A stretch of 43,137 nucleotides of DNA. It comes from a virus (lineage: Duplodnaviria; Heunggongvirae; Uroviricota; Caudoviricetes). Position numbers and translations under genes: made by a program. Of this stretch, positions 3,207 to 8,068 are shown piece by piece (within the stretch, counting starts at the first letter, position 1; each line of letters starts with the position of its first letter). The stretch is from the IMG/VR virus record IMGVR_UViG_2541047960_000005. The stretch is one strand, 5' to 3'. The notes beneath the pieces were generated by a model. It was given only the letters and a program-made list of their open reading frames with translations. It searched no databases and had not been told where the DNA came from.

Positions 3207-3401
3207 TTATTCCTCATCTTCATCTTCATCTTCATCTGCTGGTGCAATAACGTCATATCCTGCCTTTTCTGCAATAAACAGGAATGTTGAAAGAGTTCCT
3301 ACAAGTTCATCGTCATGAACATGGCGAATGAATATTACTTTCCCGTTTTTGATGGTCAGCAATACTCTGGTTTGTTCGTGTTCTGCTGTTTTCTGATGCA
3401 T
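3207..3401 (-). CDS. small protein with acidic C-terminal tail
   Basis: 64-aa ORF ending ...PADEDEDEDEE, encoded by a CATCTT hexamer repeated about 4 times (3215-3238). Confidence 0.45.
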   Translation of the reverse strand: MHQKTAEHEQTRVLLTIKNGKVIFIRHVHDDELVGTLSTFLFIAEKAGYDVIAPADEDEDEDEE

Positions 3402-4696: not shown

Positions 4697-5353
4697 TCAG
4701 AAAATATCCCACCTGGCATCAACCACAACACCTACTATTTCGCAATCATTGTCCATTTCTATGATTGGATATTGTGGATTAAGGGGCTTTAGAAACGCCT
4801 TTCCCATGTCAGAAATATATTTTTTGAATGTTGCTTCATTGGTAGATTTTTTTCTGGCGATGACGTAACACCCTGAAAAAACTTCTTTATCTGGGTTGAC
4901 AAGGATCGACATTCCTTCAGGAAATGTTATTCCTACGGGCGAAGTCATTGAGTCTCCGTGCACTTCCAGCCAGAACCCCCTCTCACCAGCGTATTTTACA
5001 GAATGCCTCCAATTATCCTGATCATACATGTTGTAGTCATCACCAGAAGTTGCGAATAATCCTGCCTGAACCCAGTTAATTACAGGGTAAGAGTGTGCTG
5101 TGTCTCTCTGTGGGCAGCTCTTAACATTATTTTCCCAATGCTTATCTTTTTCATCTCCGTTCTGAAGCCACTGCGGTGAACACCGCAGTGCAGCTGCAAC
5201 TTTAAAAAGGGTGTCACCGTTGAAACTTTTTGTAAGGCCTTGCTCGGCTTTACTGATTGCAACTCTGGTGACCCCAGCTTTTTTAGCCAACGCATTTTGT
5301 GTTAACCCAGCTTTTTGCCGTGCGTTGATGAGACGTTCACCTAAAGACTTCAT
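4697..5353 (-). CDS. cI: CI-type prophage repressor (N-terminal HTH plus C-terminal LexA-like S24 peptidase)
   Basis: ATG at 5353 with GAGGAG upstream; N-terminal LTQNALAKKAGVTRVAISKAEQG; C-terminal S24 motifs including AG and VHGDSMTSP. Confidence 0.85.
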   Translation of the reverse strand: MKSLGERLINARQKAGLTQNALAKKAGVTRVAISKAEQGLTKSFNGDTLFKVAAALRCSPQWLQNGDEKDKHWENNVKSCPQRDTAHSYPVINWVQAGLFATSGDDYNMYDQDNWRHSVKYAGERGFWLEVHGDSMTSPVGITFPEGMSILVNPDKEVFSGCYVIARKKSTNEATFKKYISDMGKAFLKPLNPQYPIIEMDNDCEIVGVVVDARWDIF

Positions 5354-5464
5354 TTTTCTTCTCCTCTCATGGCTGTTGATACTAAAGTAACAGAATTTCT
5401 TGATACTTTGGGTTCCTGTGGTTAACATCGTTGGATAACAAAGTATCTGGTGTGAGACTAAAGA
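5354..5464. promoter_or_regulatory. operator/divergent promoter region upstream of cI (OR-like)
   Basis: TTGATAC at 5376-5382 and 5400-5406; 9-bp inverted repeat GATACTTTG (5402-5410) / CAAAGTATC (5439-5447); 24- and ~40-bp spacings mirror the OL side. Confidence 0.45.
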
Positions 5465-5692
5465 ATGACCCTTTATGAAATATTAAAAATTCAATTTAAA
5501 ACCAATGCCGCTATTGGTCGCAGGTTCCCAAAGAAAGGAAGGCCTCGTGGCAGTCAAGGTGTTGGAAAGTGGAAAACGCGAGGTGTTCCGGAGGATGTTG
5601 CCATTCTTTGTCATCTGGATCCGAGCATTCCATATACACACCCAAGTCTAGCGAATACAGAAGATGACAAGCCCACAGGAGACCAACAATGA
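5465..5692 (+). CDS. ORF at the cro position (doubtful)
   Basis: 75-aa ORF whose stop overlaps the next start (ATGA), but no recognisable HTH and a weak ribosome-binding site. Confidence 0.25.
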   Translation: MTLYEILKIQFKTNAAIGRRFPKKGRPRGSQGVGKWKTRGVPEDVAILCHLDPSIPYTHPSLANTEDDKPTGDQQ

Positions 5693-6396
5693 ACACCGCA
5701 ATTTTTAACGGCAAAGCATCCATGACCAGCGTTGAGATCGCAGAGCTGGTGGGAAGCCGACCAGATAGTGTTAAGAGAACTATTGAAACACTGGCTAAAA
5801 AGGGAATCATCCAATTTCCACAGACTGTGGAAATTGAGAATAAACAATCACTTGGGCCTCGCCGATTTTCTAGCGCGTATGTATTCGAAGGTGAACGAGG
5901 TAAGCGCGACAGCATCATTGTCGTCGCACAGCTCTGTCCTGAATTCACAGCTCGCCTGGTAGATCGCTGGCGCGAACTGGAAGAACAGATCCGTAAGCCA
6001 ATGAGCGAAATCGAAATGGTTGCCGCGATGGCTCTTGAAGCCGTTCGCCAACAGAAACGGATCACTCAGGTGGAAGAAAAAGTCAGCCACGTTGCTGAAA
6101 CAGTCGAGCAAATTAAAAAGGGCACTATTCGTGAGGGCTATGCCGGATATCGCCAACTGAAAGCAAAAACCGGTTTGTCAGATGATAAATGCCGCAATCT
6201 GGTGAACGCCTATCAGATTCCTACAGACACCCATGAGTTCATGACGCCGGACGGATTGTTGTCACGTCGCGCAATTGTTGCTGTGGAACCGTTTATGGCT
6301 GCTTTTTATCGGGTTATGGAGGAAGCAGAACCGCGAGGGACTCGCTGGTATCACCCGAAAATGGGGTTATTTCAGGTTATTGGTTGGCAGCGGTGA
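5689..6396 (+). CDS. phage antirepressor-like regulatory protein (tentative)
   Basis: AGGAG 7 nt upstream of ATG 5689; N-terminal MTSVEIAELVGSRPDSVKRTIETLAKKGII and central ...LVDRWRELEEQ resemble phage antirepressor families; not confirmed by search. Confidence 0.5.
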   Translation: MNTAIFNGKASMTSVEIAELVGSRPDSVKRTIETLAKKGIIQFPQTVEIENKQSLGPRRFSSAYVFEGERGKRDSIIVVAQLCPEFTARLVDRWRELEEQIRKPMSEIEMVAAMALEAVRQQKRITQVEEKVSHVAETVEQIKKGTIREGYAGYRQLKAKTGLSDDKCRNLVNAYQIPTDTHEFMTPDGLLSRRAIVAVEPFMAAFYRVMEEAEPRGTRWYHPKMGLFQVIGWQR

Positions 6397-6420
6397 AAAA
6401 AAAGCCGGGAGTAACCCGGC
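6393..6420 (-). terminator. intrinsic terminator oriented for leftward transcription
   Basis: A8 run then hairpin GCCGGG-AGTAA-CCCGGC (6404-6420); on the minus strand this is a hairpin followed by U8. Confidence 0.5.
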
Positions 6421-6615
6421 TCACTCAACATCAATAACGGGGAGCTGTTTCGCATAAAACGGCTCTGAAACATCCAAGAACAGTTCTAAAGATATCAGCA
6501 GCTATATGATCATTTCAAGACCAAATATTGATTCTGCAATTTCGGGACGTTACACTGTCTCTGCACCTTATAAAGCGGGTGCCGGGCGTGGAAACCCGAA
6601 ATTCAATATAGAGCA

Positions 6616-6638
6616 CAACCGCGCTCATGCGGTTTTTT
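6616..6638 (+). terminator. intrinsic terminator (rightward)
   Basis: Hairpin AACCGC-GCTCAT-GCGGTT followed by T6. Confidence 0.5.
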
Positions 6639-6808
6639 CGTGTCATGAGCATCGTTACGCCCAAATTATGGTGGGGCGTGCAGGGCCAACTTCGGTTGGG
6701 CCGGGTTCTATGTTGACCGGTATTTCCACCCCTGTACGTCTCACCACCTATATGGTCGTGGAAAGCCTTGGTGGTGAGTTCATTGAATTCAACATAGGGG
6801 CTGTCACC

Positions 6809-7360
6809 ATGACTACTCTCCCAACCCAATCTCGCCCTGAAATCACGATTATCAATGGTCGCGTTGTCACCACATCTCTTGCAGTAGCTAATTACTTTAC
6901 TAAACGGCATGAGCGGGTTTTAGATAGAATTAGAAACCTCGAATGTTCCGCTGAATTTACTGAACACAATTTTGTGTTAAGTGAATACACCGACGCATCA
7001 GGCCGCAAACTCCCTTGTTACCAAATCACCCGCGACGGTTTTGCGTTTCTTGCCATGGGCTTCACTGGTAAACGTGCTGCCCAGTTCAAAGAGGCATACA
7101 TCAACGCCTTTAACCAGATGGAGAAGAATTTATCTGGTGCTGACGCGGTTGATATGTCAGCTGTCGCACGAAACGCCAGAGGCGTATACCTGCATTTGCG
7201 TGAAATCCATCAAATCTGGACAAGCCAGCTTTATCCAATGCTTAAGGCCGTTGAATCTCCGCTGGCTAGCAAACTGTACGACCGTGTTGGTGATGCTGTT
7301 TTTGGCGCTGCACTTGTTGATTCCAGGCTGAATGGTTCTGACAAGGAGGTTCGCCCATGA
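6809..7360 (+). CDS. Rha-family phage regulatory protein
   Basis: ATG 6809 preceded by AGGGG; motifs VVTTSLAVANYFTKRHERVLDRIRN and YQITRDGFAFLAMGFTGKRAAQFKEAYINAF match Rha; the frame is open back to 6506, so the start could be earlier. Confidence 0.7.
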   Translation: MTTLPTQSRPEITIINGRVVTTSLAVANYFTKRHERVLDRIRNLECSAEFTEHNFVLSEYTDASGRKLPCYQITRDGFAFLAMGFTGKRAAQFKEAYINAFNQMEKNLSGADAVDMSAVARNARGVYLHLREIHQIWTSQLYPMLKAVESPLASKLYDRVGDAVFGAALVDSRLNGSDKEVRP

Positions 7361-7551
7361 TTAGTTACGAAATCATCATCTCCACTACGGAATACAGAAA
7401 CGATGTATCAGTTCGCACGGATGTATCTGTCTGGCACCGTCGCTATAAATCCAGAAAAACAGCGGAACTGAAAGCGGCAGAGATGTGTGAAACCATCTCA
7501 ATGAAAGGTAGCCCGGTTAAATACGTAACTACGGTGGAGGTGCGTCCATGA
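7357..7551 (+). CDS. hypothetical small protein
   Basis: Start overlaps the Rha stop (ATGA); part of a translationally coupled chain. Confidence 0.5.
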   Translation: MISYEIIISTTEYRNDVSVRTDVSVWHRRYKSRKTAELKAAEMCETISMKGSPVKYVTTVEVRP

Positions 7552-7772
7552 TCCGCCACATCGTTAATTCCCTGTATCACCGATACAACCGTTGCCCCCG
7601 TGTGGGGCAGTGGTTCGCCACAAGCAACGGTCACGTTCTGCGGGTTTGCCTAGTCAACGCTGAAAGCCAGAAAGTCGTGTGCGAACTACAGGGGCGTAGC
7701 TACACCATCAGTTACCCTCTGGCGGTATTTCTGTCTGGAAAAATGTTTAAGCGTCTGGGAGGTGTGGCGTGA
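7548..7772 (+). CDS. hypothetical small protein
   Basis: ATGA overlap on both sides. Confidence 0.5.
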   Translation: MIRHIVNSLYHRYNRCPRVGQWFATSNGHVLRVCLVNAESQKVVCELQGRSYTISYPLAVFLSGKMFKRLGGVA

Positions 7773-8068
7773 ACTGTTTTCAGTTTGTGTGCGGATGTGC
7801 TTTCGATAACCCGATTCAGCGCCTAATTATGTTGCGTGTTTTGATGTCGGGTTCTTCAGACGGTGAAGGCGAGAGAGTTATTGATCATCAGGTGCTTGCT
7901 GATTTCTGCTGTTGTTCTAAGCAAGCGATATTCAGGGAAACCCTGGCACTGGAAAGAGCTGGTTATCTTCATATCCGAAAAATTGCAACGCTTACTATTG
8001 ATGCAAAAGCCAGACTACAACCTGCGCGTGGCTACACAATTCTCATGCCGCGGAAGGAGGTTGTATGA
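7769..8068 (+). CDS. hypothetical small protein
   Basis: Overlapping start and stop; sits immediately upstream of the replication initiator. Confidence 0.5.
   Translation: MNCFQFVCGCAFDNPIQRLIMLRVLMSGSSDGEGERVIDHQVLADFCCCSKQAIFRETLALERAGYLHIRKIATLTIDAKARLQPARGYTILMPRKEVV

Follow-up and report, generated by a model that had tools for sequence, protein, structure and literature searches.

A probable antisense-RNA immunity module of the IsrK/C4 type ahead of a Rha-family gene in a lambdoid early operon

In phage P4, the immunity factor is the CI RNA, and in phage P1 the mature C4-type RNA is released from a longer precursor by RNase P. The immI region of P1 and P7, described by Citron and Schuster in 1990, reportedly encodes the c4 antisense RNA and carries, in order, the sites a1 and b1, c4 with a' and b', the sites a2 and b2, and the genes icd and ant. 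The mechanism of P4 immunity is described as premature transcription termination (PMC4825925). In Salmonella, the prophage Gifsy-1 carries the locus isrK-orf45(STnc1160)-anrP (Hershko-Shalev et al. 2016; PMC4825925). Gifsy-1 IsrK is a discrete, Hfq-associated RNA of ~77 nt and acts in trans to activate translation of the read-through mRNA. In cis, IsrK locks the read-through RNA in an inactive fold; in trans, it opens the fold and turns translation on (PMC4825925).

Here we analyse a window of 43,137 nt from a virus of the class Caudoviricetes (IMG/VR record IMGVR_UViG_2541047960_000005). A first-pass annotation had claimed a non-coding gap of about 400 nt inside the rightward early operon. 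The gap between a roi-like gene and rha measures 412 nt (6397-6808), with the qualification that an ORF (6506-7360) spans it and is annotated as protein by pipelines. In this E. coli prophage, the gap very probably contains an entire antisense-RNA immunity module, of the type known from P1 immI, P4 CI, and Gifsy-1 IsrK, placed before the Rha-family gene (Table 1). Control of the IsrK/C4 type is already known, and the sRNA of about 75 nt that had been predicted from promoter to plus-strand terminator is probably real but ordinary, the region being a full-length, 77-nt match to IsrK. The first-pass annotation had overlooked the second RNA gene, C4, as well as the a/b target sites, which explain how the proposed switch operates.

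Table 1. Features in and around the gap between the roi-like gene and rha
Feature	Position	Strand	Description
roi-like gene	5689..6396	+	235 aa; Rha/Ant-type N-terminus; upstream of the gap; Pfam and PHROG matches
Intrinsic terminator	6394..6422	-	stem 6422..6402 (8 pairs, 6 G-C), then eight U at 6401..6394
Candidate leftward RNA	6394..6482	-	about 88 nt; separate from the IsrK/C4 module
Promoter-like site	6489..6518	-	TTGAAA, 18-nt spacer, TATCTT with extended TG
In-frame open stretch before the rha ATG	6506..6808	+	annotated 'Ash' N-terminal extension; spans promoter, IsrK, and C4
PisrK promoter	6528..6556	+	TTGATT (6528-6533), 17-nt spacer, TACACT (6551-6556); read directly
IsrK sRNA	6563..6639	+	Rfam RF01394; 77 nt; three hairpins, the last an intrinsic terminator (6617-6634 and U-run)
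a1	6588..6594	+	GTGGAAA; hairpin 2 loop of IsrK; complement of C4 a'
b1	6603..6614	+	TCAATATAGAGC; single-stranded part of IsrK; complementary to b' loop with G.U wobbles
C4-type antisense RNA	6664..6751	+	Rfam RF01695; 17-bp closing stem, hairpin 1, hairpin 2
AUG in 5' strand of C4	6668..6670	+	equivalent of Gifsy-1 orf45 start codon; in frame with rha, no intervening stop
b'	6705-6716	+	GUUCUAUGUUGA; 12 nt; C4 hairpin 2 loop
a'	6722-6729	+	AUUUCCAC; 8 nt; C4 junction after hairpin 2
Alternative hairpin	6740..6778	+	CTCACCACC (6740-6748) pairs with GGTGGTGAG (6770-6778); a2 in loop
a2	6758..6764	+	GTGGAAA; a' target in rha leader
b2	6789..6799	+	TCAACATAGGG; b' loop target in rha leader
rha	6809..7360	+	183 aa; Rha-family antirepressor-like regulator; gene under proposed control

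Both RNA genes match curated families over the full length of the models. In the whole window, the isrK model aligns at positions 1-77 of 77 with 61.6 bits against a gathering score of 50 (E-value 6.5e-11), and the C4 model aligns at positions 1-87 of 87 with 82.4 bits against a gathering score of 45 (E-value 8e-15). The covariance search that had been suggested as a check of the sRNA is thereby positive for two families, and the predicted fold of IsrK, which answers the suggested folding of 6560-6640, agrees with the Rfam model. IsrK has the three hairpins of its family with the Rho-independent terminator last and a sigma-70 promoter directly upstream, and the hairpins remain paired in 42 homologues. 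C4 has the long closing stem and the two internal hairpins, and the canonical fold is found in 97 of 103 homologues. The C4 stems are 100% paired, with compensatory changes in four of the five hairpin 1 pairs and in 4 of the 17 closing-stem pairs, and the conserved 3' CACCACC motif is visible. Over all intramolecular stems of the module, pairing is 95.6%, and 11 pairs covary. IsrK and C4 are separated by 24 nt; the order IsrK, about 24 nt, C4 recurs in 12 of 12 phage loci examined, including P1, where the curated a1/b1 family RF03163 (55.5 bits) overlaps the IsrK-model match. A search of the gap for tRNA and tmRNA genes finds none.

The promoter-like element TTGATT-N17-TACACT, claimed earlier at 6528-6556, is read directly at those coordinates. 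It lies 7 nt upstream of the full-length IsrK match. PisrK is predicted from the sequence to be active and to start transcription at about 6563, and the transcript ends of the module are predicted in the same way. No lambdoid-class module deviates from these hexamers or this spacing, and in the P1, P4-like, and P2-like classes a sigma-70-like promoter of different sequence occupies the same position. The homology shared with ST64B, among others, starts exactly at 6527. PisrK is not listed by the consensus scan, because its -10 hexamer falls outside the scan rule. The plus-strand terminator, placed earlier at 6616-6638, is found as a stem at 6617-6634 (7 pairs, 4 G-C) followed by UUUUUU. The minus-strand terminator, placed earlier at 6393-6420, is found a few bases off, as a stem at 6402-6422 and a U-run, and abuts the stop codon of the roi-like gene. 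Chance does not account for the features: a 5-kb scan yields 10 terminator-like sites where 5.3 +/- 2.2 would be expected, and none of the others is as strong as these two. Both terminators said to bracket the gap are present; however, the one on the minus strand lies outside the IsrK/C4 module, in a spacer of 131 nt that accompanies the roi-like gene.

The gene downstream of the module begins with an SD-ATG and an N-terminus M(A/T)T..P that are conserved in all lambdoid modules. The Pfam Phage_pRha domain begins 21 aa after the ATG at 6809, and the protein matches the PHROG families 'transcriptional regulator', 'Rha-like', and 'anti-repressor'. By analogy with the P1, P4, and Gifsy-1 literature, Rha would be an antirepressor, like the regulated protein of P1 immI, which disables the primary repressor. 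Rha is the first of a chain of ORFs with overlapping stops and starts that reaches DnaC-like and DnaB genes; the part of the chain beyond rha spans 7357-11358. On the other side of the gap, the counterpart of the roi-like gene is annotated Roi in phage PhiR49_2. The prophage CI repressor is encoded on the minus strand at 4697-5428.

The a' and b' sites of C4 are complementary to sites on both sides, a1 and b1 upstream and a2 and b2 downstream. In particular, b2 overlaps the Shine-Dalgarno sequence AGGGG (6796-6800), 8 nt before the rha ATG, and the same overlap with the ribosome-binding site is present in all lambdoid modules. The alternative hairpin in the leader and the base of the C4 stem cannot form at the same time. 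The hairpin is 96.3% paired in the 42 homologues, compared with 35-56% in slide controls, and a C-G pair is swapped for U-A in 20 of them. The whole leader folds with a z-score of -4.78, and the rha start sits in a hairpin.

These positions suggest how the switch could work. Transcription from PisrK would begin at about 6563, and the majority of transcripts would end at the intrinsic terminator (6617-6640) as 77-nt IsrK. A minority would read through, giving the C4-type RNA (6664-6751) and then the rha leader. C4, probably processed as in its relatives, would present b' and a' for pairing with b2 and a2 in the leader. Pairing of b' with b2 would block ribosome binding, because b2 covers the rha Shine-Dalgarno sequence. 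Rha would head a translationally coupled chain ending in the replication genes, and Rho-dependent polarity, known from P1 and P4, would likely act on the untranslated RNA as well. IsrK, holding a second copy of both sites (a1 and b1), would compete for a' and b' as a decoy, an anti-antisense RNA; the direction of its effect is likewise presumed by analogy. The a/b sequences would set the specificity of immunity, which would differ between phages. The alternative offered by the first-pass annotation, an attenuator governing read-through into rha, is essentially right; the read-through form of Gifsy-1 IsrK is the mRNA of the downstream antirepressor-like gene.

The three sites covary across many phages. 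The 97 canonically folding modules contain 47 combinations of a' and b', and all three site copies change in step. Cognate Watson-Crick matches are present in nearly all 97 modules, with lengths of 7 nt for a1 and a2 and 8-10 nt for b1 and b2. In 42 aligned modules, a1:a' is 97.6% paired (six of seven pairs with compensatory changes) and b1:b' is 92.1% paired (8 of 12 pairs). Jointly the two are 94.1% paired, compared with 64.4% after shuffling and 33-44% in slide controls, and 14 of 19 pairs are compensatory. In the leader, b':b2 is 96.8% paired, with compensatory changes in 8 of 11 pairs. A single register for a':a2 fails to fit all modules, as window-type leaders have 3 extra nt and a 1-nt shift, and a':a2 is therefore counted in two registers. 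Nine window-type sequences pair at the window columns (6758-6764). In the register fitting the other 33 sequences, a five-pair core is 94.8% paired with four of five pairs compensatory, and all seven pairs are 90.1% paired.

RNAduplex energies of the isolated a' and b' loops against their targets do not separate cognate from non-cognate partners, which counts against the switch model; such short probes find alternative G-C-rich partners. Longest matches with G.U pairs allowed do not tell cognate from non-cognate sets either, since the differences among many a' variants lie outside the core and the two sets overlap; column-wise covariation counts replace this test. A third C4 target in the spacer between roi and rha (TCAACAT, 6427-6433) is rejected, as the spacer is ~99% identical across phages with differing C4 specificities.

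The module resembles P1/P7 immI in having the promoter, the a1/b1 leader with terminator, C4, the a2/b2 leader, and the regulated gene in the same order. The C4 fold and the two-site recognition with b2 on the ribosome-binding site are also alike, and specificity varies between phages, as in the heteroimmunity of P1 and P7. In P1, icd lies between the a2/b2 sites and ant and must be translated for ant to be expressed. In contrast to P1, no icd homologue is present: where P1 has a 73-codon ORF, the SD-ATG at 6809 opens the Rha-family gene, and the masked ribosome-binding site is that gene's own. Moreover, the window module lies inside a lambdoid rightward early operon before the replication genes, whereas P1 has a separate immunity operon, and the frame that is open through the RNA genes in the window has stops in P1.

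The likeness to Gifsy-1 includes, as predictions for the window, a terminated IsrK of 77 nt, a read-through form that is the mRNA of an antirepressor-like gene, and a C4-like stable RNA downstream, together with pairing of the IsrK middle hairpin (a1) with the a' region and an AUG in the 5' strand of C4. However, orf45 stops in an AUGA overlap with anrP, whereas in the window the frame from the AUG at 6668 has no stop and runs straight into rha; the Gifsy-1-type AUGA arrangement does occur in three other modules (L049, L096, and L105). The loop of IsrK hairpin 1 and the promoter belong to another sequence class than in Gifsy-1, and the upstream neighbour is the antQ antiterminator there and the roi-like gene here. 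P4, with its CI RNA, seqA, and seqC, has the same Rfam hits in the same order, and its module precedes an operon ending in primase/helicase, as the window chain ends in DnaC-like and DnaB genes. Unlike in the window, IsrK and C4 of P4 lie about 107 nt apart, and the downstream genes of P4 differ. The downstream arrangement is unlike that of each characterised relative, having neither an icd-like ORF as in P1 nor an orf45 with AUGA overlap as in Gifsy-1, and this is counted against the switch model.

The ORF open through the whole module may make a protein-coding contribution. PGAP calls a 284-aa protein from it, and residues 16-111 (translation of 6551-6838) match Pfam PF10554 (Phage_ASH) with 34.7 bits, above the cut-off of 26; homologues score 43-67 bits. 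In addition, many phage records annotate the long ORF, and the rha frame runs without stops through both RNA genes in 48 of 48 lambdoid-class modules. On such observations, ORF 6506-7360 might be taken to code for a real protein of two domains, Ash and Rha, with the RNA-family matches being incidental. This explanation is highly improbable. Diversity at codon positions 1, 2, and 3 of the stretch is 0.267, 0.289, and 0.260, without third-position excess, compared with 0.362, 0.263, and 0.490 in the rha gene proper; this flat profile supports the earlier remark that the long ORFs across the gap look non-protein-like. The variation obeys base-pairing rules within and between three separate sites, which a protein does not explain. 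In every case tested, P4 included, PF10554 falls on the translation of the IsrK/C4 region; in P4 the match lies on the old 'cI' ORF, which overlaps the CI RNA. The P1, P2-like, and P4-like classes have stops in the frame in question. A conserved N-terminal extension in Rha homologues had been named beforehand as an observation that would speak against an RNA. The extension exists, as the 'Ash' domain in the always-open frame, but the RNA reading survives, because what is conserved follows RNA pairing rather than codons. Nor do cdtI, SfV, and ST64B prove a fusion protein by their long N-terminal extension: the differences cluster at the second codon position of the extension, and the conserved ORF, of 59 aa, lies in another frame.

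A second explanation adds to the switch model rather than replacing it: the RNA module is real and, in lambdoid phages, is also translated through into rha. Ribosomes could enter at the AUG inside C4 (6668) or upstream, at 6506 in the window and elsewhere at an SD-ATG overlapping the stop of the previous gene. The selected property would be ribosome transit, which would melt the terminator and C4 and shield early-operon transcripts from Rho, the peptide sequence being irrelevant. Frame 0 is stop-free in all 48 modules, and the other five frames have 1.4-4.3 stops per module; stops in the two other sense frames occur at 33 polymorphic positions. Indels are all of 3 nt, except in one module with compensating 1-nt and 2-nt deletions, and the C4 AUG keeps the frame throughout, at a distance of 138 or 141 nt to the rha ATG. 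Modules of the P1, P4-like, and P2-like classes, which head their own operon, contain stops and occur in any phase. At several independent left junctions, GGAGGTG and 6 nt precede an ATGA that overlaps the stop of the preceding gene. In accordance, translation of orf45 and its coupling to anrP are demonstrated in Gifsy-1 (PMC4825925). However, the codon-position diversity is flat, and the ATG at 6506 in the window has neither a Shine-Dalgarno sequence nor an upstream gene for coupling. Furthermore, the long extension in cdtI, ST64B, and SfV overlaps the better-conserved 59-aa ORF in a different frame, and that part of the annotated ORF is therefore not a coding frame. The modules are also mutually related, so that the counts are not independent. 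We consider such dual use possible, at less than an even chance.

If translation does occur, it could gate the switch. Only lambdoid prophages would then have kept the IsrK-terminator-C4 module in an uninterrupted frame fused to the regulated gene, and a translation-gated bypass of the embedded RNA switch is a speculative reading that we hold to be rather unlikely. In several phages the frame would be translationally coupled to the preceding gene. Transcripts from the internal promoter would remain untranslated and either terminate as IsrK or fold as C4. Transcripts from the early promoter would be translated through, and ribosomes would erase the terminator and the antisense RNA, allowing expression of the replication genes. 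Were this so, the widespread Pfam 'Ash' domain would arise as a side effect of ribosomes crossing two RNA genes.

The antisense-RNA module is mainly a correction to annotation: where the region holds two curated RNA families, pipelines annotate the N-terminal "Ash" part of a Rha-family protein and no RNA gene. The region has matches in 810 of 5,426 complete E. coli genomes (about 15%), and Stx-converting phages account for many of the phage records that match. As the module lies directly before the replication genes, a second layer of control over induction and superinfection is plausible in such phages. The 47 reassorted a'/b' specificities form a natural set of orthogonal RNA-RNA recognition pairs, and the always-open frame poses a small testable puzzle about RNA genes embedded in possibly translated sequence.

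In phage lambda, OOP is a short leftward transcript with its promoter just downstream of an early rightward gene and an intrinsic terminator at the end of that gene. The minus-strand terminator, whose separateness from the IsrK/C4 module had been overlooked, has a similar layout with a promoter-like site on its strand. Together they could define an independent leftward RNA of ~88 nt (6482 to 6394), which might serve as a cis-antisense RNA against rightward transcripts reading through the interval from roi to the module. No sequence similarity to OOP and no Rfam match above threshold are found, and the predicted RNA overlaps just the roi stop codon, not the roi coding region. Minus-strand hits to Rfam sroD, PrrF, RyhB, and SorX/Y are rejected, being far under gathering scores and driven by the terminator hairpin. 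The fold z-score is just -2.24 and comes mostly from the terminator. In phage records the spacer is rare and near-invariant: no more than 9 carry it, at >=98.5% identity, and 4 diverged copies come from metagenomes. The conserved '-35' is also located at -45 to -50 of PisrK, in the UP-element zone, which makes its conservation ambiguous, and a partial likeness to b-type sites shows no covariation with the C4 specificity of the adjoining module. The leftward RNA is a weakly supported candidate, and its existence is a tentative proposition, somewhat more doubtful than not. In its favour, the promoter-like site has an extended -10, and the strong terminator combines an 8-bp stem, with 6 G-C pairs, and a run of eight U. 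The four diverged copies keep the -35, the 18-nt spacing, TGnTATyTT, and the terminator stem while the loop and spacer diverge; in particular, 8 of 18 promoter-spacer bases differ, and both hexamers and the TG are kept. In addition, the 5' segment GUUCUUGGAUGUU is conserved, and one substitution (L097) keeps pairing, as G.U, only on the minus strand.

In this window, a lambdoid E. coli prophage of Stx-phage-like type, the gap between the roi-like and Rha-family genes holds one more example of an RNA system that is already known and curated. In an Rfam search of the entire window at curated thresholds, two matches, isrK and C4 antisense RNA, fall within the gap. A permissive scan also matches 6550-6602, below threshold, to the curated family "a1, b1 targets of C4". 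The first-pass annotation had proposed, from a promoter-like element and a plus-strand terminator, an sRNA of ~75 nt or an attenuator before Rha. Both elements are present, and the isrK match begins 7 nt past the -10 hexamer and finishes at the terminator. Therefore, the predicted sRNA is IsrK; the observation is confirmed, and its interpretation was essentially correct but incomplete. What remains of interest is an always-open frame, a mis-assigned "Ash" protein family, and an unexplained leftward terminator.

Coordinates of the RNA module and its flanking genes in the window
Feature	Position	Strand	Details
CI-type repressor	4697-5428	minus	
Small ORF in cro position	5465-5692		
roi-like gene	5689-6396		
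Gap	6397-6808		412 nt
Terminator	6422..6402	minus	hairpin, then eight U; adjoins roi stop codon
Promoter-like site	6518..6489	minus	extended -10
Promoter-like element	6528-6556	plus	TTGATT, 17 nt, TACACT
isrK (RF01394)	6563-6639		full-length; 61.6 bits, cut-off 50
a1	6588-6594		inside IsrK; complementary to a'
b1	6603-6614		inside IsrK; complementary to b'
Terminator	6617-6634	plus	hairpin, then six U
C4 (RF01695)	6664-6751		full-length; 82.4 bits, cut-off 45
b' (GUUCUAUGUUGA)	6705-6716		12-nt loop of C4 hairpin 2
a' (AUUUCCAC)	6722-6729		8-nt junction just after C4 hairpin 2
a2	6758-6764		leader; complementary to a'
b2	6789-6799		leader; complementary to b'
Shine-Dalgarno AGGGG	6796-6800		overlapped by b2
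rha ATG	6809		Pfam Rha domain from 21 codons downstream

C4 folds into two hairpins and a 17-bp closing stem, and its recognition elements a' and b' are each complementary to two sites, one within IsrK and one in the rha leader. The complete leader folds much better than shuffled controls do (z = -4.78), and the rha start lies within a local hairpin. An extra helix (6740-6748 with 6770-6778), with a2 exposed in the loop, competes for the basal part of the C4 stem. In homologues it is 96% paired, and a C-G pair is swapped for U-A; it is reminiscent of the alternative folds reported from Gifsy-1.

Covariation was counted on an alignment of 42 lambdoid-class modules. The intramolecular stems are paired in 95.6% of cells (shuffled, 88.4%; slid, 37-47%), with compensatory changes in 11 of 42 pairs. 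The a1:a' and b1:b' helices are paired in 94.1% of cells (shuffled, 64.4%; slid, 33-44%), 14 of 19 pairs are compensatory, and none of 500 shuffles attains the observed percentage paired or covariation score. The corresponding values are 96.8% and 8 of 11 pairs for b':b2, whose control is not given for the helix alone, and 90.1% (shuffled, 69.4%; slid, 33-51%) and 4 of 7 pairs for a':a2, counted in the register that fits 33 of the 42 sequences. As judged from this alignment, three-way covariation of this kind marks a functional antisense recognition system; a protein could not give rise to such a pattern.

IsrK is followed by C4 in twelve annotated phage loci: ST64B, cdtI, phiP27, SfV, several Stx phages, a P2-like Citrobacter phage, Yersinia and Hafnia phages, and P1. 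The pair also occurs in P4, where the two are set further apart. The curated a1/b1 family and the IsrK model match overlapping stretches of P1, indicating that, in the classical immI operon, IsrK is the a1/b1 leader. The P1 leader (1431-1512 of its locus), along with its terminator hairpin, scores 47.9 bits against the IsrK model, slightly short of the cut-off of 50; hence a terminated leader RNA resembling IsrK may be made by P1 too. A pattern scan of IMG/VR adds 120 loci, giving 103 distinct modules when pooled with the annotated loci. The canonical fold is found in 97 of them, which carry 17 a' and 32 b' variants in 47 combinations; in nearly all modules, cognate a1 and a2 match over 7 nt and cognate b1 and b2 over 8-10 nt. 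The a' and b' elements reassort independently (the b' of the window is paired with another a' in the prophage contig L036), suggesting recombination between the two recognition sites. In some prophage contigs (L036, also L025, L026, L064, L078, and L082), the IsrK-C4-gene cassette is present two or three times in tandem; the cassettes differ in their a'/b' combination, and each has a small gene of its own downstream. The three copies in L036 are 656 bp apart (9712-9796, 10368-10452, and 11024-11108, minus strand).

Beyond anatomy and covariation, the mechanism for the window element is modelled on P1/P7, P4, and Gifsy-1. The promoter would chiefly yield terminated IsrK, and read-through transcripts would supply C4 and the rha message. 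C4 would bind a2 and b2 and block ribosome entry at rha; IsrK, bearing the same sites, would compete for C4. Antirepressor translation in Gifsy-1 increases >100-fold when IsrK is in excess (PMC4825925). The stop codon of rha overlaps the start codon that follows, and from there seven ORFs (7357-11358) overlap or abut stop-to-start, ending with a replication protein, a DnaC/IstB-like ATPase, and DnaB helicase. Because of this chain, untranslated rha would probably lower downstream expression by polarity, and control of its ribosome-binding site could spread to the replication genes.

The open reading frame across the module raises the question of a protein. Annotation assigns to ORF 6506-7360 a protein of 284 aa, the first 100 residues of which match Pfam "Phage_ASH" (PF10554). 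In every homologue tested, PF10554 corresponds to the translated promoter-IsrK-C4-leader stretch (window 6551-6838), and this protein family seems to have been assembled from translations of the RNA region. In P4, the match (8330-8521 of its locus, minus strand) lies on an obsolete "cI gene product" ORF overlapping the CI RNA; the real epsilon protein belongs to another family, PF25738. PF10554 has been taken as a marker for epsilon (PMC8628076) and described, for the Rha proteins of Stx phages, as a domain of unknown function (PMC8951638). Codon-position diversity is coding-like in the gene proper (0.362, 0.263, 0.490) and flat in the RNA region (0.267, 0.289, 0.260), which indicates, at the sequence level, that conservation there is RNA-driven.

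The frame is nevertheless open in 48 of 48 lambdoid-class modules, the other five frames having 1.4-4.3 stops per module, and stops are present in the P1, P4-like, and P2-like classes; in Gifsy-1-type modules, orf45, which starts in C4, finishes in an AUGA overlap. Indels in lambdoid-class modules are multiples of three, apart from L045 (C4 at 3301-3384, minus strand), where a' has lost 1 nt and the sequence right after C4 has lost 2 nt, so that the frame is regained. Ribosome transit through the module may thus be selected in lambdoid phages, as several left junctions with a strong SD-ATGA overlapping the preceding stop codon would also suggest. We consider this less likely than not. In the window, no Shine-Dalgarno sequence precedes the ATG at 6506 and there is no gene to which it could be coupled; moreover, a 59-aa ORF in a different frame, overlapped by the long annotated extensions of cdtI, ST64B, and SfV, is better conserved. 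This ORF (MQELNRWFRDGRGLYVHVIRWEPE...; cdtI locus 726-905, ST64B locus 2326-2505) terminates at a TGA within TTGATT, the -35 hexamer of the IsrK promoter, and is missed in annotated records, which favour the long overlapping ORF.

The minus-strand terminator reported in the first-pass annotation is likewise present. It is part of a 131-nt spacer that travels with roi and not with the module: homology to most phages starts at 6527, at the -35 hexamer, and only nine phage records contain the spacer at ≥98.5% identity. The leftward promoter-like site predicts an RNA of ~88 nt ending at 6394, which matches no known family in the permissive Rfam scan. In four diverged spacer copies, the hexamers, their spacing, and the terminator stem are all retained, and a single base change allows pairing on the minus strand only. 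We regard a real leftward RNA as a tentative possibility. Its layout resembles that of lambda OOP, which is the only link between the two.

Elsewhere in the window, a phage-borne general porin gene lies on the minus strand (13242-14384; Pfam Porin_1, 503 bits). At 15154-15315 and 16192-16398 lie the tRNA-Met (CAT) and tRNA-Arg (TCG) genes and, after them, a full-length STnc100 sRNA match of 162 bits. An ORF with a TolA C-terminal domain (15594-16022), flanked by the tRNA pair on one side and by STnc100 and the sialate-esterase gene on the other, occupies the position of stx in related Stx phages.
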